NCBI RefSeq assembly: GCF_964213995.1
Contig: NC_135820.1
Span: 1,054,001-1,118,000, forward strand
Source of the DNA: Mustelus asterias
Taxonomy: Eukaryota
Reading direction: 5' to 3'
DNA length: 64,000 bases
Part shown: positions 15,224 through 48,429 of the stretch, piece after piece
Layout of the letters: each line of letters starts with the position of its first letter
How positions within the stretch are numbered: position 1 is the first letter of the stretch
Program-made: the position numbers and the translations under genes
Notes under the pieces: generated by a model
What the model saw: the letters and a program-made list of their open reading frames with translations, nothing else
Database searches by the model: none
Told to the model about the DNA's origin: nothing

Positions 15224-15226
15224 CTC

Positions 15227-15938: not shown

Positions 15939-17859
15939 CCACTCGATCACGATTGTAGCCACACTGAGTTCCAGTGAAGCAGCCTGGTACAAATCACAGA
16001 TGTTAAAGGTGCTATGTCAATGCAATCTGTTGTTGTTGATATGCTGTGGACAGTCAGAATGCAGAGAGACAGGAGCCATAACTGCAGCCTCTCAAAATTA
16101 TTACTGGCTGACATTCCAAAAATCCAAGCAAACGCCATTCCGATTCGCTGCTCAAATTCACCCATCCTGAATTCCAGGAGGCAGGAATGTTCAATAAAAA
16201 CAGAACATGACTTCACATCAGCAACACAAGATATTGGGGAAGGAAACTCAACACTGTCCCCATCAAACACTCCCAGGACAGGTACAGCACGGGGTTAGAG
16301 ACAGAGTAAAGCTCCCTCTACACTGTCCCCCATCAAATACTCCCAGGACAGGTACAGCACGGGGTTAGATACAGAGTAAAGCTCCCTCTACACTGTCCCC
16401 ATCAAACACTTCCAGGACAGGTACAGCACGGGGTTAGATACAGAGTAAAGCTCTCTCTACACTGTCCCCATCAAACACTCCCAGGACAGGTACAGCACGG
16501 GGTTAGATACAGAGTAAAGCTCCCTCTACACTGTCCCCCATCAATCACTCCCAGGACAGGTACAGCGCGGGCTTAGATACAGAGTAAAGCTCCCTCGACA
16601 CTGTCCCCATCAAACACTCCCAGGACATGGACAGCACGGGGGTGGATACAGAGTAAAGCTCCCTCTACACTGTCCCCATCAAACACTCCCAGGACAGGAA
16701 CAGCACGGGGGTGGATACAGAGTAAAGCTCCCTCTACACTGTCCCCCATCAAACACTCCCAGGACAGGTACAGCACGGGGTTAGATACAGAGTAAAGCTC
16801 CCTCTACACTGTCCCCATCAAACACTCCCAGGACAGGTACAGCACAGGGTTAGATAGAGAGAAAGCTCCCTCTACACTGTCCCCCATCAAACACTCCCAG
16901 GACAGGTACAGCACGGGGTTAGATAGAGAGAAAGCTCCCTCTACACTGTCCCCATCAAACACTTCCAGGACAGGTACAGCACGGGGTTAGATAAAGGGTA
17001 AAGCGCCCTCTACACTGTCCTCATCAAACACTCCCAGGATAGGTACAGCAACACGTTAGATACAGAGTAAACTCCCTCCACACGGTCCCCATCAAACACT
17101 CCCAGGACAGGTACAGCACGGGGTTAGATACAGAGTAAATCTCCCTCTACACTGTCCTCATCAAACACTCCCAGGACAGGTACAGCACGGGGTTAGATAC
17201 AGAGTAAAGCTCCCTCTACACTGTCCCCATCAAACACTCCCAGGACAGGTACAGCACAGGGTTAGATAGAGAGAAAGCTCCCTCTACACTGTCCCCCATC
17301 AAACACTCCCGGGACAGGTACAGTACGCGGTTAGATACAGAGTAAAGCTCCCTCTACACTGTCCTCATCCAACACTCCCAGGACAGGTACAGCACGGGGT
17401 TAGATACAGAGTGAAGCTCCCTCTACACAGTCCCCCATCAAACACTCCCAGGACAGGTACAGCACAGGGTTAGATAGAGAGAAAGCTCCCTCTACACTGT
17501 CCCCATCAAACACTCCCAGGACAGGTACAGCACGGGGTTAGATAAAGGGTAAAGCGCCCTCTACACTGTCCCCCATCAAACACTCCCAGGATAGGTACAG
17601 CAACACGTTAGATACAGAGTAAACTCCCTCCACACGGTCCCCATCAAACACTCCCGGGACAGGTACAGCACGGGGTTAGATACAGAGTAAAGCTCCCTCG
17701 AAACTGTCCACCATCAAACACTCCCAGGACAGGTACAGCACGGGATTCGATACAGAGTAAAGCTCCCTCTACACTGTCCCCATCAAACACTCCCAGGACA
17801 GGTACAGCACGGGATTCGATACAGAGTAAAGCTCCCTCTACACTGTCCCCATCAAACAC

Positions 17860-18881
17860 GATGTGGAGATGCCGGCGTTGGACTGGGGTGAACACAGTAA
17901 GAAGTCTCACAACACCAGGTTACACGGGACACGGTGGACAGAGTACCCTTCGTCGTCCAGTACTTCCCCGGAGCGGAGAAGCTACGGCATCTCCTCCGGA
18001 GCCTTCAACATATCATTGATGAAGACGAACATCTCGCCAAGGCCATCCCCACACCCCCACTTCTTGCCTTCAAACAACCGCACAACCTCAAACAGACCAT
18101 TGTCCGCAGCAAACTACCCAGCCTTCAGGAGAACAGTGACCACAACACCACACAACCCTGCCACAGCAACCTCTGCAAGACGTGCCGGATCATCAACACG
18201 GATGCCATCATCTCACGTGAGAACACCATCTACCAGGTACATGGTACCTACTCTTGCAACTCGGCCAACGTTGTCTACCTGATACGCTGCAAGAAAGGAT
18301 GTCCCGAGGCATGGTACATTGGGGAAACCATGCAGACGCTACGACAACGGATGAATGAACACCGCTTGACAATCACCAGGCAAGACTGTTCTCTTCCTGT
18401 GGGGGAACACTTCAGCAGTCACGGGCATTCAGCCTTGGATCTTCAGGTAAGCGTTCTCCAAGGCGGCCTTCACGACACACGACAGCGCAGAGTCACTGAG
18501 CAGAAACTGATAGCCAAGTTTCGCACACATGAGGACGGCCTAAACCGGGATGTTGGATTTATGTCACACTATCAGTAACCCCCACAGCTTGACTCCTGGA
18601 CTTACACAATTTCATAAGCTGTACTGTCTGGAGACAATACACATCTCTTTAACCTGTGTTGAATGCTCCCTCCACCCACATTGTCTGTGCATTTAAGACC
18701 TGGCTGGCTGTAGAGATTTGCATTCTAATCAGTATTCTGTAATTTGATTTCTGTGTCTGTGCCCTGTTTGAGAACAGAGACCACTCCATCTGACGAAGGA
18801 GCAGTGCTCCGAAAGCTTATGGTATTTGCTACCAAATAAACCTCTTGGACTTTAACCTGGTGTTGTGAGACTTCTTACTGT
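17860..18881 (+). mobile_element. Penelope-like (probably Neptune-clade) fragment, copy 1: inverted pLTR end, GIY-YIG endonuclease frame 17934-18578, pLTR
   Basis: Cys-rich linker PCHSNLCKTC, NVVYLIRC...WYIGET, RMNEH, GEHF, GLN. Inverted 29-mer ACAGTAAGAAGTCTCACAACACCAGGTTA. CCCATCAAACAC duplicated at both ends. Confidence 0.92.
18786..18822 (+). ncRNA. Minimal hammerhead ribozyme motif, copy 1
   Basis: CCAT-CTGACGA-A-GGAGC-AGT-GCTCC-GAAA-GC-TT-ATGG. Confidence 0.7.
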
Positions 18882-21800
18882 CCCATCAAACACTCCCAGG
18901 ACAGGTATAGCATGGGGTTAGATACAGAGTAAAGCTCCCTCTACACTGTCCCCATCAAACACTCCCAGGACAGGTACAGCACGGCGTGAGATACAGGGTG
19001 AAGCTCCCGCTACACTGTCCCCATCAAACACTCCCGGGACAGGTACAGCACGGGATTAGATACAGAGTAAAGCTCCCTCTACACTGTCCTCATCAAACAC
19101 TCCCAGGACAGGTACAGCACAGGGTTAGATAGAGAGTAAAGCTCCCTCTACACTGTCCCCATCAAACAATCCCAGGACAGGTACAGCACGGGGTTAGATA
19201 AAGGGTAAAGCTCCCTCTACACTGTCCCCCATCAAACACTCCCAGGATAGGTACAGCAACACGTTAGATACAGAGTAAACTCCCTCCACACGGTCCCCAT
19301 CAAACACTCCCAGGATCGGTACAGCACGGGGTTAGATACAGAGTAAATCTCCCTCGAAACTGTCCACCATCAAACACTCCCAGGACAGGTACAGCACGGG
19401 ATTAGATACAGAGTAAAGCTCCCTCTACACTGTCCCCACCAAACACTCCCAGGACAGGTATAGCATGGGGTTAGATACAGAGTAAAGCTCCCTCTACACT
19501 GTCCCCATCAAACACTCCCAGGACAGGTACAGCACGGCGTAAGATACAGGGTAAAGCTCCCTCTACACTGTCCCCATCAAACACTCCCGGGACAGGTACA
19601 GCACGGTATTAGATACAGAGTAAAGCTCCCTCTACACTGACCTCATCAAACACTCCCAGGACAGGTACAGCACGGGGTTAGATAGAGAGTGAAGCTCCCT
19701 CTACACTGTCCCCATCGAACACTCCCAGGACAAGTACCACACGGGGTTAGATACAGAGTAAAGCTCCCTCTACACTGTCCCTATCAAAAACTCCCAGGAC
19801 AGGTACAGAATGGGGTTAGATACAGAGTAAAGCGCCCTCCACACTGTCCCCCATCAAATACTCCCAGGACAGTTACAGCACGGGGTTAGATGCAGAGTAA
19901 ATCTCCCTCTACACTGTCCCCATCAAACACTCCCGGGACAGGTACGGCACGGGATTAGATAGAGAGTGAAGCTCCCTCTACACTGTCCCCATCAAACACT
20001 TCCAGGACAGGAACAGCACGGGGGTTAGATACAGAGTAAAGCTCCCTCTACACTGTCCCCCATCAAACACTCCCAGGACCGGTACAGCGCGGGGTTAGAT
20101 ACAGAGTAAAGCTCCCTCTACACTGTCCCCATCAAACACTCCCGGGACAGGTACGGCACGGGATTAGATAGAGAGTGAAGCTCCCTCTACACTGTCCCCA
20201 TCAAACACTCCCAGGACAGGTACAGCACGGGGTTAGATACAGAGTAAAGCTCCCTCTACACTGTCCTCATCAAACACTCCCGGGACAGGTACAGCACGGG
20301 GTTAGATAGAGAGTGAAGCTCCCTCTACACTGTCCCCATCGAACACTCCCAGGACAAGTACCACACGGGGTTAGATACAGAGTAAAGCTCCCTCTACACT
20401 GTCCCTATCAAAAACTCCCAGGACAGGTACAGAATGGGGTTAGATACAGAGTAAAGCGCCCTCCACACTGTCCCCCATCAAATACTCCCAGGACAGTTAC
20501 AGCACGGGGTTAGATGCAGAGTAAATCTCCCTCTACACTGTCCCCCATCAAACACTCCCTTTACAGGTACAGCGCGGGGTTAGATACAGAGTAAAGCTCC
20601 CTCTACACTGTCCCCATCAAACACTCCCGGGACAGGTACGGCACGGGATTAGATAGAGAGTGAAGCTCCCTCTACACTGTCCCCATCAAACACTTCCAGG
20701 ACAGGAACAGCACGGGGGTTAGATACAGAGAAAAGCTCCCTCTACACTGTCCCCCATCAAACACTCCCAGGACAGGTACAGCGCGGGGTTAGATACAGAG
20801 TAAAGCTCCCTCTACACTGTCCCCATCAAACACTCCCGGGACAGGTACGGCACGGGATTAGATAGAGAGTGAAGCTCCCTCTGCACTGTCCCCATCAAAC
20901 ACTCCCAGGACAGGTACAGCACGGGGTTAGATACAGAGTAAAGCTCCCTCTACACTGTCCTCATCAAACACTCCCGGGACAGGTACAGCACGGGGTTAGA
21001 TACAGAGTAAAGCTCTCTCTACACTGTCCCCATCAAACACTCCCAGGACAGGTACAGCACGGGGTTAGATACAGAGTAAAGCTCCCTCGACACTGTCCCC
21101 ATCAAACACTTCCAGGACATGGACAGCACGGGGGTGGATACAGAGTAAAGCTCCCTCTACACTGTCCCCATCAAACACTCCCAGGACAGGAACAGCACGG
21201 GGGTGGATACAGATTAAAGCTCCCTCTACACTGTCCCCCATCATACACTCCCAGGACAGGTACAGCACGGGGTTAGATACAGAGTAAAGCGCCCTCCACA
21301 CTGTCCCCCATCAAATACTCCCAGGACAGTTACAGCACGGGGTTAGATGCAGAGTAAATCTCCCTCTACACTGTCCCCCATCAAACACTCCCAGGACAGG
21401 TACAGCGCGGGGTTAGATGCAGAGTAAAGCTCCCTCTACACTGTCCCCATCAAACACTTCCGGGACAGGTACGGCACGGGATTAGATAGAGAGTGAAGCT
21501 CCCTCTACACTGTCCCCATCAAACACTTCCAGGACAGGAACAGCACGGGGGTTAGATACAGAGTAAAGCTCCTTCTACACTGTCCCCCATCAAACACTCC
21601 CAGGACCGGTACAGCGCGGGGTTAGATACAGAGTAAAGCTCCCTCTACACTGTCCCCATCAAACACTCCGGGGACAGATACGGCACGGGATTAGATAGAG
21701 AGTGAAGCTCCCTCTACACTGTCCCCATCAACACTCCCAGGACAGGTACAGCACGGGGTTAGATACAGAGTAAAGCTCCCTCTACACTGTCCTCATCAAA

Positions 21801-23252
21801 CACTCCCGGGACAGGTACAGCACGGGGTTAGATACAGAGTAAAGCTCTCTCTACACTGTCCCCATCAAACACTCCCAGGACAGGTACAGCACGGGGTCAG
21901 ATACAGAGTAAAGCTCCCTCTACACTGTCCCCCATCAATCACTCCCAGGACAGGTACAGCGCGGGCTTAGATACAGAGTAAAGCTCCCTCGACACTGTCC
22001 CCATCAAACACTTCCAGGACATGGACAGCACGGGGGTGGATACAGAGTAAAGCTCCCTCTACACTGTCCCCATCAAACACTCCCAGGACAGGAACAGCAC
22101 GGGGGTGGATACAGATTAAAGCTCCCTCTACACTGTCCCCCATCATACACTCCCAGGACAGGTACAGCACGGGGTTAGATACAGAGTAAAGCTCCCTCTA
22201 CACTGTCCCCATCAAACACTCCCAGGACAGGTACAGCACAGGTTTGATAGAGAGAAAGCTCCCTCTACACTGTCCCCCATCAAACACTCCCAGGACAGGT
22301 ACAGCACGGGGTTAGATACAGAGTGAAGCTCCCTCTACACTGTCCCCCATCAAACACTCCCAGGACAGGTACAGCACAGGGTTAGATAGAGAGAAAGCTC
22401 CCTCTACACTGTCCCCATCAAACACTTCCAGGACAGGTACAGCACGGGGTTAGATAAAGGGTAAAGCGCCCTCTGCACTGTCCTCATCAAACACTCCCAG
22501 GATAGGTACAGCAACACGTTAGATACAGAGTAAACTCCCTCCACACTGTCCCCATCAAACACTCCCAGGACAGGTACAGCACAGGGTTAGATAGAGAGAA
22601 AGCTCCCTCTACACTGTCCCCCATCAAACACTCCCAGGACAGGTACAGCACGCGGTTAGATACAGAGTAAAGCTCCCTCTACACTGTCCTCATCAAACAC
22701 TCCCAGGACAGGTACAGCACGGGGTTAGATACAGAGTAAAGCTCCCTCTACACTGTCCCCATCAAACACTCCCAGGACAGGTACAGCACAGGGTTAGATA
22801 GAGAGAAAGCTCCCTCTACACTGTCCCCCATCAAACACTCCCAGGACAGGTACAGCACAGGGTTAGATAGAGAGAAAGCTCCCTCTACACTGTCCCCATC
22901 AAACACTCCCAGGACAGGTACAGCACGGGGTTAGATAAAGGGTAAAGCGCCCTCTACACTGTCCCCCATCAAACACTCCCAGGATAGGTACAGCAACACG
23001 TTAGATACAGAGTAAACTCCCTCCACATGGTCCCCATCAAACACTCCCGGGACAGGTACAGCACGGGGTTAGATACAGAGTAAAGCTCCCTCGAAACTGT
23101 CCACCATCAAACACTCCCAGGACAGGTACAGCACGGGATTCGATACAGAGTAAAGCTCCCTCTACACTGTCCCCATCAAACACTCCCAGGACAGGTACAG
23201 CACGGGATTCGATACAGAGTAAAGATCCCTCTACATTGTCCCCATCAAACAC

Positions 23253-24274
23253 GATGTGGAGATGCCGGCGTTGGACTGGGGTAAGCACAGTAAGAAGTCT
23301 CACAACACCAGGTTACACGGGACACGGTGGACAGAGTACCCTTCGTCGTCCAGTACTTCCCCGGAGCGGAGAAGCTACGGCATCTCCTCCGGAGCCTTCA
23401 ACATGTCATTGATGAAGACGAACATCTCGCCAAGGCCATCCCCACACCCCCACTTCTTGCCTTCAAACAACCGCACAACCTCAAACAGACCATTGTCCGC
23501 AGCAAACTACCCAGCCTTCAGGAGAACAGTGACCACAACACCACACAACCCTGCCACAGCAACCTCTGCAAGACGTGCCGGATCATCAACACGGATGCCA
23601 TCATCTCACGTGAGAACACCATCTACCAGGTACATGGTACCTACTCTTGCAACTCGACCAACGTTGTCTACCTGATACGCTGCAAGAAAGGATGTCCCGA
23701 GGCATGGTACATTGGGGAAACCATGCAGACGCTACGACAACGGATGAATGAACACCGCTCGACAATCACCAGGCAAGACTGTGTTCTTCCTGTGGGGGAG
23801 CACTTCAGCAGTCACGGGCATTCAGCCTTGGATCTTCAGGTAAGCGTTCTCCAAGGCGGCCTTCACGACACACGACAGCGCAGAGTCACTGAGCAGAAAC
23901 TGATAGCCAAGTTTCGCACACATGAGGACGGCCTAAACCGGGATGTTGGATTTATGTCACACTATCAGTAACCCCCACAGCTTGACTCCTGGACTTACAC
24001 AATTTCACAAGCTGTACTGTCTGGAGACAATACACATCTCTTTAACCTGTGTTGAATGCTCCCTCCACCCACATTGTCTGTGCATTTAAGACCTGGCTGG
24101 CTGTAGAGATTTGCATTCTAATCAGTATTCTGTAATTTGATTTCTGTGTCTGTGCCCTGTTTGAGAACAGAGACCACTCCATCTGACGAAGGAGCATTGC
24201 TCCGAAAGCTTATGGTATTTGCTACCAAATAAACCTCTTGGACTTTAACCTGGTGTTGTGAGACTTCTTACTGT
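23253..24274 (+). mobile_element. Penelope-like fragment copy 2 (hammerhead 24179-24215)
   Basis: Same junctions as copy 1; open frame 23327-23971. Confidence 0.92.
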
Positions 24275-26218
24275 CCCATCAAACACTCCCAGGACAGGTA
24301 TAGCATGGGGTTAGATACAGAGTAAAGCTCCCTCTACACTGTCCCCATCAAACACTCCCAGGACAGGTACAGCACGGCGTGAGATACAGGGTGAAGCTCC
24401 CTCTACACTGTCCCCATCAAACACTCCCGGACAGGTACAGCACAGGGTTAGATACAGCGTAAAGCTCCCTCTACACTATCCCCCATCAAACACTCCCAGG
24501 ACAGATACAGCACAGGGTTAGATACAGAGTAAAGCTCCCTCTACACTATCCCCCATCAAACACTCCCAGGACAGGTACAGCACGGGATTAGATACAGAGT
24601 AAAGCTCCCTCTACACTGTCCTCATCAAACACTCCCAGGACAGGTACAGCGCGGGGTTAGATACAGAGTAAAGCTCCCTCTACACTGTCCCCATCAAACA
24701 CTCCCGGGACAGGTACGGCACGGGATTAGATAGAGAGTGAAGCTCCCTCTGCACTGTCCCCATCAAACACTCCCAGGACAGGTACAGCACGGGGTTAGAT
24801 ACAGAGTAAAGCTCCCTCTACACTGTCCTCATCAAACACTCCCGGGACAGGTACAGCACGGGGTTAGATACAGAGTAAAGCTCTCTCTACACTGTCCCCA
24901 TCAAACACTCCCAGGACAGGTACAGCACGGGGTTAGATACAGAGTAAAGCTCCCTCGACACTGTCCCCATCAAACACTTCCAGGACATGGACAGCACGGG
25001 GGTGGATACAGAGTAAAGCTCCCTCTACACTGTCCCCATCAAACACTCCCAGGACAGGAACAGCACGGGGGTGGATACAGATTAAAGCTCCCTCTACACT
25101 GTCCCCCATCATACACTCCCAGGGCAGGTACAGCACGGGGTTAGAGACAGAGTAAAGCTCCCTCTACACTGTCCCCATCAAACACTCCCAGGACAGGTAC
25201 AGCACAGGTTTGATAGAGAGAAAGCTCCCTCTACACTGTCCCCCATCAAACACTCCCAGGACAGGTACAGCACGGGGTTAGATACAGAGTGAAGCTCCCT
25301 CTACACTGTCCCCCATCAAACACTCCCAGGACAGGTACAGCACAGGGTTAGATAGAGAGAAAGCTCCCTCTACACTTTCCCCATCAAACACTTCCAGGAC
25401 AGGTACAGCACGGGGTTAGATAAAGGGTAAAGCGCCCTCTGCACTGTCCTCATCAAACACTCCCAGGATAGGTACAGCAACACGTTAGATACAGAGTAAA
25501 CTCCCTCCACACTGTCCCCATCAAACACTCCCAGGACAGGTACAGCACAGGGTTAGATAGAGAGAAAGCTCCCTCTACACTGTCCCCCATCAAACACTCC
25601 CAGGACAGGTACAGCACGCGGTTAGATACAGAGTAAAGCTCCCTCTACACTGTCCTCATCAAACACTCCCAGGACAGGTACAGCACGGGGTTAGATACAG
25701 AGTAAAGCTCCCTCTACACTGTCCCCATCAAACACTCCCAGGACAGGTACAGCACAGGGTTAGATAGAGAGAAAGCTCCCTCTACACTGTCCCCCATCAA
25801 ACACTCCCAGGACAGGTACAGCACAGGGTTAGATAGAGAGAAAGCTCCCTCTACACTGTCCCCATCAAACACTCCCAGGACAGGTACAGCACGGGGTTAG
25901 ATAAAGGGTAAAGCGCCCTCTACACTGTCCCCCATCAAACACTCCCAGGATAGGTACAGCAACACGTTAGATACAGAGTAAACTCCCTCCACATGGTCCC
26001 CATCAAACACTCCCGGGACAGGTACAGCACGGGGTTAGATACAGAGTAAAGCTCCCTCGAAACTGTCCACCATCAAACACTCCCAGGACAGGTACAGCAC
26101 GGGATTCGATACAGAGTAAAGCTCCCTCTACACTGTCCCCATCAAACACTCCCAGGACAGGTACAGCACGGGATTCGATACAGAGTAAAGATCCCTCTAC
26201 ATTGTCCCCATCAAACAC

Positions 26219-27240
26219 GATGTGGAGATGCCGGCGTTGGACTGGGGTAAGCACAGTAAGAAGTCTCACAACACCAGGTTACACGGGACACGGTGGACAG
26301 AGTACCCTTCGTCGTCCAGTACTTCCCCGGAGCGGAGAAGCTACGGCATCTCCTCCGGAGCCTTCAACATGTCATTGATGAAGACGAACATCTCGCCAAG
26401 GCCATCCCCACACCCCCACTTCTTGCCTTCAAACAACCGCACAACCTCAAACAGACCATTGTCCGCAGCAAACTACCCAGCCTTCAGGAGAACAGTGACC
26501 ACAACACCACACAACCCTGCCACAGCAACCTCTGCAAGACGTGCCGGATCATCAACACGGATGCCATCATCTCACGTGAGAACACCATCTACCAGGTACA
26601 TGGTACCTACTCTTGCAACTCGACCAACGTTGTCTACCTGATACGCTGCAAGAAAGGATGTCCCGAGGCATGGTACATTGGGGAAACCATGCAGACGCTA
26701 CGACAACGGATGAATGAACACCGCTCGACAATCACCAGGCAAGACTGTGTTCTTCCTGTGGGGGAGCACTTCAGCAGTCACGGGCATTCAGCCTTGGATC
26801 TTCAGGTAAGCGTTCTCCAAGGCGGCCTTCACGACACACGACAGCGCAGAGTCACTGAGCAGAAACTGATAGCCAAGTTTCGCACACATGAGGACGGCCT
26901 AAACCGGGATGTTGGATTTATGTCACACTATCAGTAACCCCCACAGCTTGACTCCTGGACTTACACAATTTCACAAGCTGTACTGTCTGGAGACAATACA
27001 CATCTCTTTAACCTGTGTTGAATGCTCCCTCCACCCACATTGTCTGTGCATTTAAGACCTGGCTGGCTGTAGAGATTTGCATTCTAATCAGTATTCTGTA
27101 ATTTGATTTCTGTGTCTGTGCCCTGTTTGAGAACAGAGACCACTCCATCTGACGAAGGAGCATTGCTCCGAAAGCTTATGGTATTTGCTACCAAATAAAC
27201 CTCTTGGACTTTAACCTGGTGTTGTGAGACTTCTTACTGT
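26219..27240 (+). mobile_element. Penelope-like fragment copy 3 (hammerhead 27145-27181)
   Basis: Same junctions; frame 26293-26937 with peptide identical to copy 2. Confidence 0.92.
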
Positions 27241-29950: not shown

Positions 29951-30972
29951 GATGTGGAGATGCCGGCGTTGGACTGGGGTAAGCACAGTAAGAAGTCTCA
30001 CAACACCAGGTTACACGGGACACGGTGGACAGAGTACCCTTCGTCGTCCAGTACTTCCCCGGAGCGGAGAAGCTACGGCATCTCCTCCGGAGCCTTCAAC
30101 ATGTCATTGATGAAGACGAACATCTCGCCAAGGCCATCCCCACACCCCCACTTCTTGCCTTCAAACAACCGCACAACCTCAAACAGACCATTGTCCGCAG
30201 CAAACTACCCAGCCTTCAGGAGAACAGTGACCACAACACCACACAACCCTGCCACAGCAACCTCTGCAAGACGTGCCGGATCATCAACACGGATGCCATC
30301 ATCTCACGTGAGAACACCATCTACCAGGTACATGGTACCTACTCTTGCAACTCGACCAACGTTGTCTACCTGATACGCTGCAAGAAAGGATGTCCCGAGG
30401 CATGGTACATTGGGGAAACCATGCAGACGCTACGACAACGGATGAATGAACACCGCTCGACAATCACCAGGCAAGACTGTGTTCTTCCTGTGGGGGAGCA
30501 CTTCAGCAGTCACGGGCATTCAGCCTTGGATCTTCAGGTAAGCGTTCTCCAAGGCGGCCTTCACGACACACGACAGCGCAGAGTCACTGAGCAGAAACTG
30601 ATAGACAAGTTTCGCACACATGAGGACGGCCTAAACCGGGATGTTGGATTTATGTCACACTATCAGTAACCCCCACAGCTTGACTCCTGGACTTACACAA
30701 TTTCACAAGCTGTACTGTCTGGAGACAATACACATCTCTTTAACCTGTGTTGAATGCTCCCTCCACCCACATTGTCTGTGCATTTAAGACCTGGCTGGCT
30801 GTAGAGATTTGCATTCTAATCAGTATTCTGTAATTTGATTTCTGTGTCTGTGCCCTGTTTGAGAACAGAGACCACTCCATCTGACGAAGGAGCATTGCTC
30901 CGAAAGCTTATGGTATTTGCTACCAAATAAACCTCTTGGACTTTAACCTGGTGTTGTGAGACTTCTTACTGT
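29951..30972 (+). mobile_element. Penelope-like fragment copy 4 (hammerhead 30877-30913)
   Basis: Same junctions; frame 30025-30669. Confidence 0.92.
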
Positions 30973-33900
30973 CCCATCAAACACTCCCAGGACAGGTATA
31001 GCATGGGGTTAGATACAGAGTAAAGCTCCCTCTACACTGTCCCCATCAAACACTCCCAGGACAGGTACAGCACGGCGTGAGATACAGGGTGAAGCTCCCT
31101 CTACACTGTCCCCATCAAACACTCCCGGACAGGTTCAGCACGGGATTAGATACAGAGTAAAGCTCCCTCTACACTGTCCTCATCAAACACTCCCAGGACA
31201 GGTACAGCACAGGGTTAGATAGAGAGTAAAGCTCCCTCTACACTGTCCCCATCAAACACTCCCAGGACAGGTACAGCACGGGGTTAGATAAAGGGTAAAG
31301 CTCCCTCTACACTGTCCCCCATCAAACACTCCCAGGATAGGTACAGCAACACGTTAGATACAGAGTAAACTCCCTCCACACGGTCCCCATCAAACACTCC
31401 CAGGACCGGTACAGCACGGGGTTAGATACAGAGTAAATCTCCCTCGAAACTGTCCACCATCAAACACTCCCAGGACAGGTACAGCACGGGATTAGATACA
31501 GAGTAAAGCTCCCTCTACACTGTCCCCATCAAACACTCCCAGGACAGGTATAGCATGGGGTTAGATACAGAGTAAAGCTCCCTCTACACTGTCCCCATCA
31601 AACACTCCCAGGACAGGTACAGCACGGCGTAAGATACAGGGTAAAGCTCCCTCGACACTGTCCCCATCAAACACTCCCGGGACAGGTACAGCACGGTATT
31701 ACATACAGAGTAAAGCTCCCTCTACACTGACCTCATCAAACACTCCCAGGACAGGTACAGCACGGGGTTAGATAGAGAGTGAAGCTCCCTCTACACTGTC
31801 CCCATCGAACACTCCCAGGACAAGTACCACACGGGGTTAGATACAGAGTAAAGCTCCCTCTACACTGTCCCTATCAAAAACTCCCAGGACAGGTACAGAA
31901 TGGGGTTAGATACAGAGTAAAGCGCCCTCCACACTGTCCCCCATCAAATACTCCCAGGACAGTTACAGCACGGGGTTAGATGCAGAGTAAATCTCCCTCT
32001 ACACTGTCCCCCATCAAACACTCCCAGGACAGGTACAGCGCGGGGTTAGATGCAGAGTAAAGCTCCCTCTACACTGTCCCCATCAAACACTCCTGGGACA
32101 GGTACGGCACGGGATTAGATAGAGAGTGAAGCTCCCTCTACACTGGCCCATCAAACACTTCCAGGACAGGAACAGCACGGGGGTTAGATACAGAGTAAAG
32201 CTCCCTCTACACTGTCCCCCATCAAACACTCCCAGGACAGGTACAGCGCGGGGTTAGATACAGAGTAAAGCTCCCTCTACACTGTCCCCATCAAACACTC
32301 CCGGGACAGGTACGGCACGGGATTAGATAGAGAGTGAAGCTCCCTCTACACTGTCCCCATCAAACACTCCCAGGACAGATACAGCACGGGGTTAGATACA
32401 GAGTAAAGCTCCCTCTACACTGTCCTCATCAAACACTCCCGGGACAGGTACAGCACGGGGTTAGATAGAGAGTGAAGCTCCCTCTACACTGTCCCCATCG
32501 AACACTCCCAGGACAAGTACCACACGGCGTTAGATACAGAGTAAAGCTCCCTCTACACTGTCCCTATCAAAAACTCCCAGGACAGGTACAGAATGGGGTT
32601 AGATACAGAGTAAAGCGCCCTCCACACTGTCCCCCATCAAATACTCCCAGGACAGTTACAGCACGGGGTTAGATGCAGAGTAAATCTCCCTCTACACTGT
32701 CCCCCATCAAACACTCCCAGGACAGGTACAGCGCGGGGTTAGATACAGAGTAAAGCTCCCTCTACACTGTCCCCATCAAACACTCCCGGGACAGGTACGG
32801 CACGGGATTAGATAGAGAGTGAAGCTCCCTCTACCCTGTCCCCATCAAACACTTCCAGGACAGGAACAGCACGGGGTTAGATACAGAGTAAAGCTCCCTC
32901 TACACTGTCCCCCAGCAAACACTCCCAGGACAGGTACATCGCGGGGTTAGATACAGAGTAAAGCTCCCTCTACACTGTCCCCATCAAACACTCCCGGGAC
33001 AGGTACGGCACGGGATTAGATAGAGAGTGAAGCTCCCTCTACACTGTCCCCATCAAACACTCCCAGGACAGGTACAGCACGGGGTTAGATACAGAGTAAA
33101 GCTCCCTCTACACTGTCCTCATCAAACACTCCCGGGACAGGTACAGCACAGGGTTAGATACAGAGTAAAGCTCCATCTACACTGTCCCCATCAAACACTC
33201 CCCGGACAGGTACAGCACGGGGTTAGATACAGAGGTAAGCTCCCTCTATACTGTCCTCATCAAACACTCCCAGGACAGGTACAGCATGGGGTTAGATACA
33301 GAGTAAAGCTCCCTCTACACTGTCCCCATCAAACACTCCCAGGACAGGTACAGCACGGTGTTAGATACAGAGTAAAGCTCCCTCTGCACTGTCCTCATCA
33401 AACACTCCCAGGACAGGTACAGCACAGGGTTAGATACAGAGTAAAGCTCCCTCTACACTGTCCTCATCAAACACTCCCGGGACAGGTACAGCACGGGATT
33501 AGATACAGAGTAAAGCTCCCTCTACACTGTCCCCATCAAACACTCCCAGGACAGGTATAGCATGGGGTTAGATACAGAGTAAAGCTCCCTCTACACTGTC
33601 CCCCATCATACACTCCCAGGACAGGTACAGCACGGGGTTAGATACAGAGTAAAGCTCCCTCTACACTGTCCCCATCAAACACTCCCAGGACAGGTACAGC
33701 ACAGGGTTAGATAGAGAGAAAGCTCCCTCTACACTGTCCCCCATCAAACACTCCCAGGACAGGTACAGCACGGGGTTAGATACAGAGTGAAGCTCCCTCT
33801 ACACTGTCCCCCATCAAACACTCCCAGGACAGGTACAGCACAGGGTTTGATGGAGAGAAAGCTCCCTCTACACTGTCCCCATCAAACACTTCCAGGACAG

Positions 33901-34717
33901 GTACAGCACGGGGTTAGATAAAGGGTAAAGCGCCCTCTACACTGTCCTCATCAAACACTCCCAGGATAGGTACAGCAACACGTTAGATACAGAGTAAACT
34001 CCCTCCACACTGTCCCCATCAAACACTCCCAGGACAGGTACAGCACAGGGTTAGATAGAGAGAAAGCTCCCTCTACACTGTCCCCCATCAAACACTCCCA
34101 GGACAGGTACAGCACGCGGTTAGATACAGAGTAAAGCTCCCTCTACACTGTCCTCATCAAACACTCCCAGGACAGGTACAGCACGGGGTTAGATACAGAG
34201 TAAAGCTCCCTCTCCACTGTCCCCATCAAACACTCCCAGGACAGGTACAGCACAGGGTTAGATAGAGAGAAAGCTCCCTCTACACTGTCCCCCATCAAAC
34301 ACTCCCAGGACAGGTACAGCACAGGGTTAGATAGAGAGAAAGCTCCCTCTACACTGTCCCCCATCAAACACTCCCAGGACAGGTACAGCACGGGGTTAGA
34401 TAAAGGGTAAAGCGCCCTCTACACTGTCCCCCATCAAACACTCCCAGGATAGGTACAGCAACACGTTACATACAGAGTAAACTCCCTCCACATGGTCCCC
34501 ATCAAACACTCCCGGGACAGGTACAGCACGGGGTTAGATACAGAGTAAATCTCCCTCGAAACTGTCCACCATCAAACACTCCCAGGACAGGTACAGCACG
34601 GGATTCGATACAGAGTAAAGCTCCCTCTACACTGTCCCCATCAAACACTCCCAGGACAGGTACAGCACGGGATTCGATACAGAGTAAAGATCCCTCTACA
34701 TTGTCCCCATCAAACAC

Positions 34718-35739
34718 GATGTGGAGATGCCGGCGTTGGACTGGGGGAAGCACAGTAAGAAGTCTCACAACACCAGGTTACACGGGACACGGTGGACAGA
34801 GTACCCTTCGTCGTCCAGTACTTCCCCGGAGCGGAGAAGCTACGGCATCTCCTCCGGAGCCTTCAACATGTCATTGATGAAGACGAACATCTCGCCAAGG
34901 CCATCCCCACACCCCCACTTCTTGCCTTCAAACAACCGCACAACCTCAAACAGACCATTGTCCGCAGCAAACTACCCAGCCTTCAGGAGAACAGTGACCA
35001 CAACACCACACAACCCTGCCACAGCAACCTCTGCAAGACGTGCCGGATCATCAACACGGATGCCATCATCTCACGTGAGAACACCATCTACCAGGTACAT
35101 GGTACCTACTCTTGCAACTCGACCAACGTTGTCTACCTGATACGCTGCAAGAAAGGATGTCCCGAGGCATGGTACATTGGGGAAACCATGCAGACGCTAC
35201 GACAACGGATGAATGAACACTGCTCGACAATCACCAGGCAAGACTGTGTTCTTCCTGTGGGGGAGCACTTCAGCAGTCACGGGCATTCAGCCTTGGATCT
35301 TCAGGTAATCGTTCTCCAAGGCGGCCTTCACGACACACGACAGCGCAGAGTCACTGAGCAGAAACTGATAGACAAGTTTCGCACACATGAGGACGGCCTA
35401 AACCGGGATGTTGGATTTATGTCACACTATCAGTAACCCCCACAGCTTGACTCCTGGACTTACACAATTTCACAAGCTGTACTGTCTGGAGACAATACAC
35501 ATCTCTTTAACCTGTGTTGAATGCTCCCTCCACCCACATTGTCTGTGCATTTAAGACCTGGCTGGCTGTAGAGATTTGCATTCTAATCAGTATTCTGTAA
35601 TTTGATTTCTGTGTCTGTGCCCTGTTTGAGAACAGAGACCACTCCATCTGACGAAGGAGCATTGCTCCGAAAGCTTATGGTATTTGCTACCAAATAAACC
35701 TCTTGGACTTTAACCTGGTGTTGTGAGACTTCTTACTGT
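34718..35739 (+). mobile_element. Penelope-like fragment copy 5 (hammerhead 35644-35680)
   Basis: Same junctions; frame 34792-35436. Confidence 0.92.
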
Positions 35740-38700
35740 CCCATCAAACACTCCCAGGACAGGTATAGCATGGGGTTAGATACAGAGTAAAGCTCCCTCT
35801 ACACTGTCCCCATCAAACACTCCCAGGACAGGTACAGCACGGCGTGAGATACAGGGTGAAGCTCCCTCTACACTGTCCCCATCAAACACTCCCGGACAGG
35901 TACAGCACGGGATTAGATACAGAGTAAAGCTCCCTCTACACTGTCCTCATCAAACACTCCCAGGACAGGTACAGCACAGGGTTAGATAGAGAGTAAAGCT
36001 CCCTCTACACTGTCCCCATCAAACACTCCCAGGACAGGTACAGCACGGGGTTAGATAAAGGGTAAAGCTCCCTCTACACTGTCCCCCATCAAACACTCCC
36101 AGGATAGGTACAGCAACACGTTAGATACAGAGTAAACTCCCTCCACACGTTCCCCATCAAACACTCCCAGGATCGGTACAGCACGGGGTTAGATACAGAG
36201 TAAATCTCCCTCGAAACTGTCCACCATCAAACACTCCCAGGACAGGTACAGCACGGGATTAGATACAGAGTAAAGCTCCCTCTACACTGTCCCCATCAAA
36301 CACTCCCAGGACAGGTATAGCATGGGGTTAGATACAGAGTAAAGCTCCCTCTACACTGTCCCCATCAAACACTCCCAGGACAGGTACAGCACGGCGTAAG
36401 ATACAGGGTAAAGCTCCCTCGACACTGTCCCCATCAAACACTCCCGGGACAGGTACAGCACGGTATTAGATACAGAGTAAAGCTCCCTCTACACTGACCT
36501 CATCAAACACTCCCAGGACAGGTACAGCACGGGGTTAGATAGAGAGTGAAGCTCCCTCTACACTGTCCCCATCGAACACTCCCAGGACAAGTACCACACG
36601 GGGTTAGAGACAGAGTAAAGCTCCCTCTACACTGTCCCTATCAAAAACTCCCAGGACAGGTACAGAATGGGGTTAGATACAGAGTAAAGCGCCCTCCACA
36701 CTGTCCCCCATCAAATACTCCCAGGACAGTTACAGCACGGGGTTAGATGCAGAGTAAATCTCCCTCTACACTGTCCCCCATCAAACACTCCCAGGACAGG
36801 TACAGCGCGGGGTTAGATGCAGAGTAAAGCTCCCTCTACACTGTCCCCATCAAACACTCCTGGGACAGGTACGGCACGGGATTAGATAGAGAGTGAAGCT
36901 CCCTCTACACTGTCCCCATCAAACACTTCCAGGACAGGAACAGCACGGGGGTTAGATACAGAGTAAAGCTCCCTCTACACTGTCCCCCATCAAACACTCC
37001 CAGGACCGGTTCAGCGCGGGGTTAGATACAGAGTAAAGCTCCCTCTAAACTGTCCCCATCAAACACTCCCGGGACAGGTACGGCACGGGATTAGATAGAG
37101 AGTGAAGCTCCCTCTACACTGTCCCCATCAAACACTCCCAGGACAGGTACAGCACGGGGTTAGATACAGAGTAAAGCTCCCTCTACACTGTCCTCATCAA
37201 ACACTCCCGGGACAGGTACAGCACGGGGTTAGATAGAGAGTGAAGCTCCCTCTACACTGTCCCCATCGAACACTCCCAGGACAAGTACCACACGGGGTTA
37301 GATACAGAGTAAAGCTCCCTCTACACTGTCCCTATCAAAAACTCCCAGGACAGGTACAGAATGGGGTTAGATACAGAGTAAAGCGCCCTCCACACTGTCC
37401 CCCATCAAATACTCCCAGGACAGTTACAGCACGGGGTTAGATGCAGAGTAAATCTCCCTCTACACTGTCCCCCATCAAACACTCCCAGGACAGGTACAGC
37501 GCGGGGTTAGATACAGAGTAAAGCTCCCTCTACACTGTCCCCATCAAACACTCCCGGGACAGGTACGGCACGGGATTAGATAGAGAGTGAAGCTCCCTCT
37601 ACCCTGTCCCCATCAAACACTTCCAGGACAGGAACAGCACGGGGTTAGATACAGAGTAAAGCTCCCTCTACACTGTCCCCCAGCAAACACTCCCAGGACA
37701 GGTACATCGCGGGGTTAGATACAGAGTAAAGCTCCCTCTACACTGTCCCCATCAAACACTCCCGGGACAGGTACGGCACGGGATTAGATAGAGAGTGAAG
37801 CTCCCTCTACACTGTCCCCATCAAACACTCCCAGGACAGGTACAGCACGGGGTTAGATACAGAGTAAAGCTCCCTCTACACTGTCCTCATCAAACACTCC
37901 CGGGACAGGTACAGCACAGGGTTAGATACAGAGTAAAGCTCCATCTACACTGTCCCCATCAAACACTCCCCGGACAGGTACAGCACGGGGTTAGATACAG
38001 AGGTAAGCTCCCTCTATACTGTCCTCATCAAACACTCCCAGGACAGGTACAGCATGGGGTTAGATACAGAGTAAAGCTCCCTCTACACTGTCCCCATCAA
38101 ACACTCCCAGGACAGGTACAGCACGGTGTTAGATACAGAGTAAAGCTCCCTCTGCACTGTCCTCATCAAACACTCCCAGGACAGGTACAGCACAGGGTTA
38201 GATACAGAGTAAAGCTCCCTCTACACTGTCCTCATCAAACACTCCCGGGACAGGTACAGCACGGGATTAGATACAGAGTAAAGCTCCCTCTACACTGTCC
38301 CCATCAAACACTCCCAGGACAGGTATAGCATGGGGTTAGATACAGAGTAAAGCTCCCTCTACACTGTCCCCCATCATACACTCCCAGGACAGGTACAGCA
38401 CGGGGTTAGATACAGAGTAAAGCTCCCTCTACACTGTCCCCATCAAACACTCCCAGGACAGGTACAGCACAGGGTTAGATAGAGAGAAAGCTCCCTCTAC
38501 ACTGTCCCCCATCAAACACTCCCAGGACAGGTACAGCACGGGGTTAGATACAGAGTGAAGCTCCCTCTACACTGTCCCCCATCAAACACTCCCAGGACAG
38601 GTACAGCACAGGGTTTGATGGAGAGAAAGCTCCCTCTACACTGTCCCCATCAAACACTTCCAGGACAGGTACAGCACGGGGTTAGATAAAGGGTAAAGCG

Positions 38701-39485
38701 CCCTCTGCACTGTCCTCATCAAACACTCCCAGGATAGGTACAGCAACACGTTAGATACAGAGTAAACTCCCTCCACACTGTCCCCATCAAACACTCCCAG
38801 GACAGGTACAGCACAGGGTTAGATAGAGAGAAAGCTCCCTCTACACTGTCCCCCATCAAACACTCCCAGGACAGGTACAGCACGCGGTTAGATACAGAGT
38901 AAAGCTCCCTCTACACTGTCCTCATCAAACACTCCCAGGACAGGTACAGCACGGGGTTAGATACAGAGTAAAGCTCCCTCTCCACTGTCCCCATCAAACA
39001 CTCCCAGGACAGGTACAGCACAGGGTTAGATAGAGAGAAAGCTCCCTCTACACTGTCCCCCATCAAACACTCCCAGGACAGGTACAGCACAGGGTTAGAT
39101 AGAGAGAAAGCTCCCTCTACACTGTCCCCCATCAAACACTCCCAGGACAGGTACAGCACGGGGTTAGATAAAGGGTAAAGCGCCCTCTACACTGTCCCCC
39201 ATCAAACACTCCCAGGATAGGTACAGCAACACGTTACATACAGAGTAAACTCCCTCCACATGGTCCCCATCAAACACTCCCGGGACAGGTACAGCACGGG
39301 GTTAGATACAGAGTAAATCTCCCTCGAAACTGTCCACCATCAAACACTCCCAGGACAGGTACAGCACGGGATTCGATACAGAGTAAAGCTCCCTCTACAC
39401 TGTCCCCATCAAACACTCCCAGGACAGGTACAGCACGGGATTCGATACAGAGTAAAGATCCCTCTACATTGTCCCCATCAAACAC

Positions 39486-40507
39486 GATGTGGAGATGCCG
39501 GCGTTGGACTGGGGGAAGCACAGTAAGAAGTCTCACAACACCAGGTTACACGGGACACGGTGGACAGAGTACCCTTCGTCGTCCAGTACTTCCCCGGAGC
39601 GGAGAAGCTACGGCATCTCCTCCGGAGCCTTCAACATGTCATTGATGAAGACGAACATCTCGCCAAGGCCATCCCCACACCCCCACTTCTTGCCTTCAAA
39701 CAACCGCACAACCTCAAACAGACCATTGTCCGCAGCAAACTACCCAGCCTTCAGGAGAACAGTGACCACAACACCACACAACCCTGCCACAGCAACCTCT
39801 GCAAGACGTGCCGGATCATCAACACGGATGCCATCATCTCACGTGAGAACACCATCTACCAGGTACATGGTACCTACTCTTGCAACTCGACCAACGTTGT
39901 CTACCTGATACGCTGCAAGAAAGGATGTCCCGAGGCATGGTACATTGGGGAAACCATGCAGACGCTACGACAACGGATGAATGAACACTGCTCGACAATC
40001 ACCAGGCAAGACTGTGTTCTTCCTGTGGGGGAGCACTTCAGCAGTCACGGGCATTCAGCCTTGGATCTTCAGGTAATCGTTCTCCAAGGCGGCCTTCACG
40101 ACACACGACAGCGCAGAGTCACTGAGCAGAAACTGATAGACAAGTTTCGCACACATGAGGACGGCCTAAACCGGGATGTTGGATTTATGTCACACTATCA
40201 GTAACCCCCACAGCTTGACTCCTGGACTTACACAATTTCACAAGCTGTACTGTCTGGAGACAATACACATCTCTTTAACCTGTGTTGAATGCTCCCTCCA
40301 TCCACATTGTCTGTGCATTTAAGACCTGGCTGGCTGTAGAGATTTGCATTCTAATCAGTATTCTGTAATTTGATTTCTGTGTCTGTGCCCTGTTTGAGAA
40401 CAGAGACCACTCCATCTGACGAAGGAGCATTGCTCCGAAAGCTTATGGTATTTGCTACCAAATAAACCTCTTGGACTTTAACCTGGTGTTGTGAGACTTC
40501 TTACTGT
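39486..40507 (+). mobile_element. Penelope-like fragment copy 6 (hammerhead 40412-40448)
   Basis: Same junctions; frame 39560-40204 with peptide identical to copy 5. Confidence 0.92.
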
Positions 40508-43500
40508 CCCATCAAACACTCCCAGGACAGGTATAGCATGGGGTTAGATACAGAGTAAAGCTCCCTCTACACTGTCCCCATCAAACACTCCCAGGACAGG
40601 TACAGCACGGCGTGAGATACAGGGTGAAGCTCCCTCTACACTGTCCCCATCAAACACTCCCGGACAGGTACAGCACGGGATTAGATACAGAGTAAAGCTC
40701 CCTCTACACTGTCCTCATCAAACACTCCCAGGACAGGTACAGCACAGGGTTAGATAGAGAGTAAAGCTCCCTCTACACTGTCCCCATCAAACACTCCCAG
40801 GACAGGTACAGCACGGGGTTAGATAAAGGGTAAAGCTCCCTCTACACTGTCCCCCATCAAACACTCCCAGGATAGGTACAGCAACACGTTAGATACAGAG
40901 TAAACTCCCTCCACACGTTCCCCATCAAACACTCCCAGGATCGGTACAGCACGGGGTTAGATACAGAGTAAATCTCCCTCGAAACTGTCCACCATCAAAC
41001 ACTCCCAGGACAGGTACAGCACGGGATTAGATACAGAGTAAAGCTCCCTCTACACTGTCCCCATCAAACACTCCCAGGACAGGTATAGCATGGGGTTAGA
41101 TACAGAGTAAAGCTCCCTCTACACTGTCCCCATCAAACACTCCCAGGACAGGTACAGCACGGCGTAAGATACAGGGTAAAGCTCCCTCGACACTGTCCCC
41201 ATCAAACACTCCCGGGACAGGTACAGCACGGTATTAGATACAGAGTAAAGCTCCCTCTACACTGACCTCATCAAACACTCCCAGGACAGGTACAGCACGG
41301 GGTTAGATAGAGAGTGAAGCTCCCTCTACACTGTCCCCATCGAACACTCCCAGGACAAGTACCACACGGGGTTAGAGACAGAGTAAAGCTCCCTCTACAC
41401 TGTCCCTATCAAAAACTCCCAGGACAGGTACAGAATGGGGTTAGATACAGAGTAAAGCGCCCTCCACACTGTCCCCCATCAAATACTCCCAGGACAGTTA
41501 CAGCACGGGGTTAGATGCAGAGTAAATCTCCCTCTACACTGTCCCCCATCAAACACTCCCAGGACAGGTACAGCGCGGGGTTAGATGCAGAGTAAAGCTC
41601 CCTCTACACTGTCCCCATCAAACACTCCTGGGACAGGTACGGCACGGGATTAGATAGAGAGTGAAGCTCCCTCTACACTGTCCCCATCAAACACTTCCAG
41701 GACAGGAACAGCACGGGGGTTAGATACAGAGTAAAGCTCCCTCTACACTGTCCCCCATCAAACACTCCCAGGACCGGTTCAGCGCGGGGTTAGATACAGA
41801 GTAAAGCTCCCTCTACACTGTCCCCATCAAACACTCCCGGGACAGGTACGGCACGGGATTAGATAGAGAGTGAAGCTCCCTCTACACTGTCCCCATCAAA
41901 CACTCCCAGGACAGGTACAGCACGGGGTTAGATACAGAGTAAAGCTCCCTCTACACTGTCCTCATCAAACACTCCCGGGACAGGTACAGCACGGGGTTAG
42001 ATAGAGAGTGAAGCTCCCTCTACACTGTCCCCATCGAACACTCCCAGGACAAGTACCACACGGGGTTAGATACAGAGTAAAGCTCCCTCTACACTGTCCC
42101 TATCAAAAACTCCCAGGACAGGTACAGAATGGGGTTAGATACAGAGTAAAGCGCCCTCCACACTGTCCCCCATCAAATACTCCCAGGACAGTAACAGCAC
42201 GGGGTTAGATGCAGAGTAAATCTCCCTCTACACTGTCCCCCATCAAACACTCCCAGGACAGGTACAGCGCGGGGTTAGATACAGAGTAAAGCTCCCTCTA
42301 CACTGTCCCCATCAAACACTCCCGGGACAGGTACGGCACGGGATTAGATAGAGAGTGAAGCTCCCTCTACACTGTCCCCATCAAACACTCCCAGGACAGG
42401 TACAGCACGGCGTAAGATACAGGGTAAAGCTCCCTCGACACTGTCCCCATCAAACACTCCCGGGACAGGTACAGCACGGTATTACATACAGAGTAAAGCT
42501 CCCTCTACACTGACCTCATCAAACACTCCCAGGACAGGTACAGCACGGGGTTAGATAGAGAGTGAAGCTCCCTCTACACTGTCCCCATCGAACACTCCCA
42601 GGACAAGTACCACACGGGGTTAGAGACAGAGTAAAGCTCCCTCTACACTGTCCCTATCAAAAACTCCCAGGACAGGTACAGAATGGGGTTAGATACAGAG
42701 TAAAGCGCCCTCCACACTGTCCCCCATCAAATACTCCCAGGACAGTTACAGCACGGGGTTAGATGCAGAGTAAATCTCCCTCTACACTGTCCCCCATCAA
42801 ACACTCCCAGGACAGGTACAGCGCGGGGTTAGATGCAGAGTAAAGCTCCCTCTACACTGTCCCCATCAAACACTCCTGGGACAGGTACGGCACGGGATTA
42901 GATAGAGAGTGAAGCTCCCTCTACACTGTCCCCATCAAACACTTCCAGGACAGGAACAGCACGGGGGTTAGATACAGAGTAAAGCTCCCTCTACACTGTC
43001 CCCCATCAAACACTCCCAGGACCGGTTCAGCGCGGGGTTAGATACAGAGTAAAGCTCCCTCTACACTGTCCCCATCAAACACTCCCGGGACAGGTACGGC
43101 ACGGGATTAGATAGAGAGTGAAGCTCCCTCTACACTGTCCCCATCAAACACTCCCAGGACAGGTACAGCACGGGGTTAGATACAGAGTAAAGCTCCCTCT
43201 ACACTGTCCTCATCAAACACTCCCGGGACAGGTACAGCACGGGGTTAGATAGAGAGTGAAGCTCCCTCTACACTGTCCCCATCGAACACTCCCAGGACAA
43301 GTACCACACGGTGTTAGATACAGAGTAAAGCTCCCTCTACACTGTCCCTATCAAAAACTCCCAGGACAGGTACAGAATGGGGTTAGATACAGAGTAAAGC
43401 GCCCTCCACACTGTCCCCCATCAAATACTCCCAGGACAGTTACAGCACGGGGTTAGATGCAGAGTAAATCTCCCTCTACACTGTCCCCCATCAAACACTC

Positions 43501-45099
43501 CCAGGACAGGTACAGCGCGGGGTTAGATACAGAGTAAAGCTCCCTCTACACTGTCCCCATCAAACACTCCCGGGACAGGTACGGCACGGGATTAGATAGA
43601 GAGTGAAGCTCCCTCTACCCTGTCCCCATCAAACACTTCCAGGACAGGAACAGCACGGGGTTAGATACAGAGTAAAGCTCCCTCTACACTGTCCCCCATC
43701 AAACACTCCCAGGACAGGTACAGCGCGGGGTTAGATACAGAGTAAAGCTCCCTCTACACTGTCCCCATCAAACACTCCCGGGACAGGTACGGCACGGGAT
43801 TAGATAGAGTGAAGCTCCCTCTACACTGTCCCCATCAAACACTCCCAGGACAGGTACAGCACGGGGTTAGATACAGAGTAAAGCTCCCTCTACACTGTCC
43901 TCATCAAACACTCCCGGGACAGGTACAGCACAGGGTTAGATACAGAGTAAAGCTCCATCTACACTGTCCCCATCAAACACTCCCCGGACAGGTACAGCAC
44001 GGGGTTAGATACAGAGGTAAGCTCCCTCTATACTGTCCTCATCAAACACTCCCAGAACAGGTACAGCATGGGGTTCGATACAGAGTAAAGCTCCCTCTAC
44101 ACTGTCCCCATCAAACACTCCCAGGACAGGTACAGCACGGTGTTAGATACAGAGTAAAGCTCCCTCTGCACTGTCCTCATCAAACACTCCCAGGGCAGGT
44201 ACAGCACAGGGTTAGATACAGAGTAAAGCTCCCTCTACACTGTCCTCATCAAACACTCCCGGGACAGGTACAGCACGGGATTAGATACAGAGTAAAGCTC
44301 CCTCTACACTGTCCCCATCAAACACATCCAGGACACGTACAGCACGGGGTTAGATACAGAGTAAAGCTCCCTCTACACTGTCCACATCAAACACTCCCAG
44401 GACAGGTACAGCACGGGGTTAGATAGAGAGTGAAGCTCCCTCTCCACTGTCCCCATCAAACACTCCCAGGACAGGTACAGCATGGGGTTAGATACAGAGT
44501 AAAGCTCCCTCCACACTGTCCCCATCAAACACACCCAGGACAGGTACAGCACGGGGTTAGATACAGAGTAAAGCTCCCTCTACACTGTCCCCATCAAACA
44601 CTCCCAGGACAGGTACAGCATGGGGTTAGATACAGAGTAAAGCTCCCTCGAAACTGTCCACCATCAAACACTCCCAGGATAGGTACAGCAACACGTTAGA
44701 TACAGAGTAAAGCTCCCTCTACACTGTCCCCCATCAAACACTCCCCGGACAGGTACAGCATGGGGTTAGATACAGAGGAAAGCTCCCTCTACACTGTCCC
44801 CATCAAACACTCCCAGGACCGGTACAGCATGGGGTGAGATACAGAGGAAAGCTCCCTCTCCACTGTCCCCATCAAACACTCCCAGAACAGGTACAGCACG
44901 GTGTTCGATACAGAGTAAAGCTCTCTCTACACTGTCCCCATCAAACACTCCCAGGACAGGTACAGCAACACGTTAGATACAGTGTAAAGCTCCTTTGACA
45001 CTGTCCCCCATCAAACACTCCCAGGACATTCTGGGGATCATTTTTTTTTTTTTGCTTGGGAAATGTTAAATTTGGTTGAGTGGCCGGTGTGGAACCTGT

Positions 45100-45834: not shown

Positions 45835-45945
45835 GATGACACAGACCATCTTTTTTGTTCAGTGATCATGGTTGAGAGATGCATCACCCTACCCCGCCTG
45901 CTCTCATTCTGAAAGACAACACCTCTGACAGTGCAGCACTCCCTC
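45835..45945 (-). mobile_element. Deu-domain SINE (SacSINE1/AmnSINE-like) remnant abutting the 33-bp array
   Basis: Minus strand GAGGGAGTGCTGCACTGTCAGAGGTGTTGTCTTTCAGAATGAGA resembles the recalled Deu-domain start. Confidence 0.55.
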
Positions 45946-48426: not shown

Positions 48427-48429
48427 ACT

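Follow-up and report, generated by a model that had tools for sequence, protein, structure and literature searches.

How six copies of one retrotransposon fragment came to lie within a single satellite array is the question raised by the stretch of Mustelus asterias DNA analysed here (NC_135820.1, 1,054,001-1,118,000; the whole 64,000 nt are termed the window, and the genome searched comprised 3.68 Gb). An array of a 69-bp satellite, which resolves into 326 monomers of 116 types, is interrupted six times by a cassette of a Penelope-like element containing an endonuclease frame and a hammerhead ribozyme motif. It is highly probable that a single truncated head-to-head insertion of this element was multiplied to six, together with the neighbouring monomers, by local DNA duplication, and the copies are likely inert passengers. 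The array and its cassettes occupy the following positions of the window:

about 16247-45028, plus strand: 69-bp satellite array of irregular higher-order structure, interrupted by six cassettes
17860..18881, plus strand: cassette 1, the outgroup among the six, with 7 private changes
23253..24274, plus strand: cassette 2, identical to cassette 3
26219..27240, plus strand: cassette 3
29951..30972, plus strand: cassette 4
34718..35739, plus strand: cassette 5
39486..40507, plus strand: cassette 6, one base from cassette 5

All six cassettes are 1022 bp long, with start-to-start spacings of 5393, 2966, 3732, 4767 and 4768 bp, and every copy, start and distance given in the original prediction was recovered. 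They share one orientation and identical outer and inner junctions, and CCCATCAAACAC flanks each of them on both sides; orientation, junctions and the 12-bp duplication are identical in all six, as had been claimed. The further claim of the same variant monomers on each side held in part: the first right-hand monomer is the same variant throughout and the left-hand monomer in copies 2-6, with that of copy 1 off by 2 bases.

The cassette is assigned, by its domain order and motifs, to the ordinary insertions of a Penelope-like (Neptune-type) element, being head-to-head and doubly truncated. Compared with the long family copy L021, cassette bases 1-63 represent the inverted 3' end with a 34-bp tail and bases 63-1022 a 5'-truncated, tail-less copy, so that copy 1 is composed of these parts:

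17860..17922, minus strand: short arm, the element's last 63 bp including the 34-bp tail (reference 2438-2500)
17922..18881, plus strand: long arm, 5'-truncated, tail-less copy of 959 bp (reference 1507-2466)
17934..18578, plus strand: 214-codon frame with linker, CX4CxxC motif and GIY-YIG endonuclease with CCHH, lacking both an ATG start and a reverse transcriptase (RT)
18786..18822, plus strand: minimal type-I hammerhead motif; cleavage is predicted after 18818
17848..17859, plus strand: 12-bp target-site duplication, left copy
18882..18893, plus strand: 12-bp target-site duplication, right copy
17843..17845, plus strand: CTG half of the proposed spaced palindrome, which reads CTG-N17-CAG in an empty monomer
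18897..18899, plus strand: CAG half of the proposed spaced palindromic target

The tail is carried by the short arm only and, combined with the inverted arm and the target duplication, agrees with the features that define Penelope-like elements with an endonuclease (EN+). Head-to-head form is the norm in this family: an inverted tail-less partner was found at 57 of 92 tail ends outside the satellite, 52 of the 57 with a 9-15-bp duplication (mode 12), and the insertion anatomy published in the accessible parts of PMC8557442 and PMC3846280 agrees with it. The family is represented by 83,993 exact tail 15-mers in the genome, and its young members include near-complete RT-EN frames; in L021 an RVT_1 match (E=1.6e-9) is followed by a C-terminal GIY-YIG domain in a single frame. 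According to the portion of PMC8557442 available, in which C-terminal EN+ elements of the Neptune/Nematis type are described, these share with the present family RT and then GIY-YIG in one frame, a CX2-5CxxC linker and CCHH, as well as 5' truncation, an inverted truncated arm, a one-sided 30-40-bp tail and a hammerhead in the pseudo-long terminal repeat (pLTR), whereas the cassette differs from full elements in consisting of the EN end only. At window 6689-6948 lies an insertion of this family that is older, likewise head-to-head and equipped with a hammerhead motif of its own.

That one insertion was amplified with the satellite had been concluded in part from shared orientation, outer junctions and duplication. 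The conclusion stands, but these grounds are insufficient for it, because independent insertions use the same site genome-wide, as 199 matches to the left junction show. The left-junction loci examined display differing truncations and 79-99% identity to a young copy, and the hot-spot insertions are therefore independent of one another. Co-amplification is supported by the internal junction, which has six matches in the genome (1 mismatch allowed), all of them inside the window. In addition, 7 bases common to all six cassettes differ from the young-family majority, and 5 of these 7 are absent from all 35-36 young dispersed arms that cover them (top BLAST hits, duplicates included). Flanks of 276 bp differ by 0-5 (left) and 0-11 (right), whereas 300 random in-phase pairs have a median of 27 differences (5th percentile 17). 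The hot spot itself is real, and 8 of 20 other multi-junction clusters hold independent insertions; that six of them occurred side by side here has nevertheless practically no probability, being refuted by an identical internal breakpoint unique in the genome, by the shared derived bases and also by the shared flanking variants. The other 12 clusters were co-amplified (identical breakpoints, 98.6-100% identity), and co-amplification of satellite-borne insertions is common in this genome.

The six copies have one origin, a nested descent in physical order and no copy elsewhere in the assembly. At 15 variable sites, copy 1 shows 10-15 differences from the others and copies 2-6 show 0-5 among themselves, with variants nesting as (1,(2,3,(4,(5,6)))). 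The spacers differ by gains and losses of blocks and have distinct block orders; between spacers 4-5 and 5-6, 12 substitutions were counted in 3746 columns. Multiplication would most likely have proceeded by unequal exchange or a comparable local duplication of DNA; repeated unequal exchange would fit both the block changes and a discordant tree of the right flanks.

Several observations weigh against a single insertion multiplied in place. The copy number of the cassettes is taken from the assembly alone, and four sequencing runs, short contigs of relatives drawn from 24 listed runs that all consist of contigs, contained the family and the empty satellite site and no piece spanning a cassette. 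Copy 1 has three private bases, at positions 31, 33 and 945 (window 17890, 17892 and 18804), that agree with the states of an older subfamily, and over 63/63 bases its short arm is identical to the older copy at 6886-6948; short gene conversion or a polishing error is possible. The right-flank tree, in which copy 1 is nearer to 4-6 than to 2-3, disagrees with the cassette tree and therefore indicates a mosaic history and not simple serial duplication. Part of the six might be an artefact of assembly, with haplotypes expanded or merged, as copy 2 is identical to copy 3, copies 5 and 6 are one base apart, the four runs gave no confirmation of copy number, and paired contigs elsewhere carry one composite in unequal copy number (2 vs 1). 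Nested substitutions and distinct spacer block orders contradict this, and even the most similar spacers are 12 substitutions apart, which makes an artefact quite improbable.

A single insertion multiplied by DNA duplication has a counterpart in the G5 Jockey and Doc5 units of the Drosophila Rsp loci (accessible parts of PMC5411766), where an element was likewise DNA-copied with surrounding repeats and shared breakpoints; unlike those units, six direct copies are present here, in an irregular 3-5.4-kb higher-order unit with a ribozyme motif in each. A literature search on composite satellites, in texts accessible in part, yielded general precedents only. The locus is a clear, datable case in which a minisatellite acquired a higher-order repeat with a kilobase period through a transposon fragment, and inserts of this kind serve as good markers of array turnover. 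As an outcome in this genome the locus itself is ordinary, and the probable rule by which the element chose its target is more telling.

This rule becomes apparent when junctions between satellite and element are placed on the monomer. Satellite followed by tail gave 121 matches at monomer positions 53-83; among the 100 listed, 98 had gaps of 14-20 (possible 0-30) and all ended at or just beyond AAACAC, while none was found at positions 15-45 or 33-55. Tail followed by satellite gave 220 matches at positions 39-69 and one at 6-36, the two ranges covered, and all of the 100 listed for the former joined inside the same 12-bp word. Of the 342 junctions found, 341 thus fall into the two scanned ranges that include a single 12-bp word. 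Given 146,386 satellite anchors, chance would produce about 1.7 junctions per site and orientation and 231 overall, an approximate estimate since one anchor was counted and a longer tail word used. The satellite is hit about 1.5 times the average overall (342 vs 231 expected), yet nearly always at one word. A satellite-specific retrotransposon would have most of its copies in the target repeat; here, with 342 junctions against 83,993 tail ends, this is not the case.

At dispersed sites, CTG-N16/17-CAG centred on the duplication was present in 26 of 52 cases (background 0.5%), and half-sites occupied 69 of 104 positions (background 6.4%), or 20/26, 29/46 and 20/32 by age class. The monomer carries exactly one CTG-N17-CAG, around CCCATCAAACAC, and insertions would concentrate on one of its words because the target of the dispersed sites occurs once per monomer. 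It is probable that the endonuclease cuts an interrupted palindrome with CTG and CAG 16-17 bp apart, leaving 12-nt 3' overhangs of which both prime, that the satellite (~146,000 monomers) acts as a reporter of this preference, and that the array then multiplies the inserts into ribozyme-bearing macrosatellites. Under the half-site rule, 23 of the 52 dispersed sites possess both halves; the 23 with only one and the 6 with neither speak against such a cutter.

At the present locus the endonuclease of the element would have recognised the single CTG-N17-CAG of a monomer and nicked both strands 12 nt apart, presumably 2-3 nt 5' of each CAG. Each 3' end would then have served as primer for reverse transcription, which would have begun at one or the other of two start sites separated by 34 nt; the two start sites would yield a tailed and a tail-less arm, and the staggered nicks the 12-bp duplication. 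The endonuclease likely acts as a dimer. In the parts of PMC11167929 available, the anole Poseidon element PAc is similar in vitro, in that both strands are cut and then extended, the tail is set by two RT start sites and a dimer is predicted; unlike the family described here, PAc prefers AT-rich DNA (ATT), and a fixed two-sided site is not reported for it there. Target biases of the Neptune/Nematis type, so far as the available text of PMC8557442 covers them, concern AT-rich DNA, microsatellites or rDNA, in contrast to a spaced CTG/CAG palindrome.

Alternatively, the hot spot could be due to microhomology between primer and template, or to selective survival, instead of recognition by the endonuclease. 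In its favour, junctions often continue for 1-9 element-derived bases beyond the tail and match the duplicated word over short stretches. Against it, CTG and CAG are conserved outside the duplication, symmetrically on its two sides and in each of the three age classes of dispersed sites, and the duplicated bases themselves have no strong consensus; this alternative is regarded as unlikely. Recognition of the spaced palindrome by the endonuclease was not found as a rule in the published literature searched. The rule bears on DNA cutting and head-to-head assembly in Penelope-like elements, and a two-sided site with a 69-bp monomer as substrate makes it directly testable. If it is true, hundreds of independent insertions of several ages lie on one word, with almost none in the remaining monomer, and the array then multiplies them into ribozyme-bearing macrosatellites. 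The same hot-spot effect was observed in long interspersed nuclear element (LINE) repeats, with recurrent insertions of the family at few sites (L083, L091, L094, L095, L098, L110, L111, L030, L133).

Whether the cassettes have retained any function was considered for frame and ribozyme separately. The endonuclease frame is free of stops in all six, running 214 codons from GTG to TAA with no RT within the cassette, which confirms the earlier description; its caveats also apply as described, as the GTG is the 12th codon past a TAA and the first in-frame ATG lies downstream of the GIY-YIG motif. The Pfam GIY-YIG match on the cassette (E=2.3e-4, 21.8 bits) is slightly below the cut-off of 22.6, and 213/218 residues are identical to the C-terminus of the RT-bearing copy L021. 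The translation displays a CHSNLCKTC linker, C-x3-C within the motif and HFSSH downstream, so that both the CCHH motif and the upstream CX2-5CxxC linker, as defined in the available text of PMC8557442, are present. Selection on the frame was considered and rejected: 9 amino-acid-changing and 4 silent codon changes are near the neutral expectation of 69:28, the chance of the frame staying stop-free is 0.62, and 34/34 young dispersed arms are likewise open. A satellite reading frame continuing into the EN frame was also rejected, as the TAA blocks it in 6/6. The open frame reflects the youth of the insertion and not selection at this locus; the same youth, a distance of about 1-1.5% from the young family, accounts for the intact state of frame and hammerhead.

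The minimal type-I hammerhead core (CUGANGA/GAAA/UH, helices I and II of 4 and 5 bp, palindromic loop 3) is intact in all six cassettes. Across 45 family variants the first helix-I pair takes the form U-A 22 times and C-G 18 times, and G never occupies the cleavage position (H17). An Rfam scan of the window gave no match at gathering score. The motif folds at -11.4 kcal/mol; the 81-nt hammerhead regions do not exceed shuffled sequences in stability (z -0.44 and -0.74) and the 44-nt core reaches z -1.49, and folding energy therefore gives the hammerhead no support.

The original prediction had speculated that hammerheads cut read-through transcripts into 3-5.4 kb units, which an autonomous Penelope RT would reinsert, spreading the satellite in the manner of retrozymes. 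In line with this, an intact hammerhead on one strand is present in 6/6 units, where at least 2 consecutive tandem units are expected of a retrozyme; the U-A/C-G covariation and the absence of G at the cleavage position are family-wide; near-complete RT-EN frames exist in the young family; and upstream on the same strand is a long terminal repeat (LTR)-like stretch with a TATA-like motif. Moreover, Penelope machinery is able to move pLTR-framed DNA in trans, according to the parts of PMC3846280 accessible. Dispersed offspring are missing, however: a genome-wide search for the cassette-specific internal junction at unlinked loci returned none (0/6 matches outside the array). Two other composites do occur on several contigs, one with 12 matches on 7 and one with 3 on 2, and share outer unique flanks at 95-99.9%; they are therefore duplicated or allelic loci. 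An apparent dispersal of the 12-match composite was discarded, as longer walks showed two seemingly unrelated flank groups to be two ends of one duplicated array locus. Array ends coinciding with the cut site were likewise rejected: the ends (49 left, 50 right, partly non-independent) are scattered round the monomer.

Nor does the predicted cleavage fit the idea of unit RNAs that have pLTR sequence as their end at the RT start sites. Cleavage after 18818 would fall 63 nt before the end of the long arm and place the start site of the RT close to the 5' end of such an RNA. The sense strand is without the 34-nt tail and without the RNA downstream of it; the anole element requires RNA beyond its start sites, and ribozyme cleavage is dispensable for its insertion in vitro (PMC11167929, as far as available). 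Minimal hammerheads are moreover weak cutters that need dimers, judging from the available part of PMC4209133. The units of 2966-5393 bp are unequal and do not resemble a short uniform retrozyme unit. Newt satellite 2 is an example of a non-LTR retrozyme. In the accessible parts of bioRxiv 10.64898/2026.07.22.740005, where reported units measure 51-972 bp (pipeline period limit 1000), non-LTR retrozymes are similar in that every tandem unit holds a type-I hammerhead derived from Penelope elements; they differ in that the units here are 3-5.4 kb, unequal and mostly unrelated satellite, have no dispersed monomers and are known from DNA alone. Retrozyme-like mobility of the composite is not supported, and is regarded as very improbable.

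The surroundings of the array comprise a host gene and further repeats. Exons of a gene with two immunoglobulin (Ig) domains, V-set and CD80/butyrophilin-like C2-set, lie on the plus strand at window 5687-6013, about 9715-10005 and about 11812-11931, and a probable short last exon ends in a hydrophobic tail and stop, a tail which we take to resemble a glycosylphosphatidylinositol (GPI)-anchor signal. The array begins ~4 kb past the apparent stop of this gene, on the same strand. A position within the gene was rejected, as the gene seems to end near 11930 and 101 scanned frames contained no later host exon, although short exons could escape such a scan. The LTR-like stretch mentioned above, with TATA-like and AATAAA motifs, is situated at about 14935-15226 (plus strand), just before a stretch of N and 1 kb upstream of the array. 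Elsewhere, a ~70-110-kb locus of the 69-bp array exists in several duplicated or allelic copies (contigs C42, C66, C208, C606, C909, C923 and C1106), in each of which a single older insertion of the element is present 1-3 times. A second composite repeat was observed at C208:154784-187234 (L209-L216), in which 69-bp satellite blocks alternate with a TG-rich simple repeat at a period of about 2-5 kb. Further dispersed minisatellites with units of 33, 37 and 35 bp are present at window 10156-11732, 45922-50277, 13794-14713 and 55212-55774.

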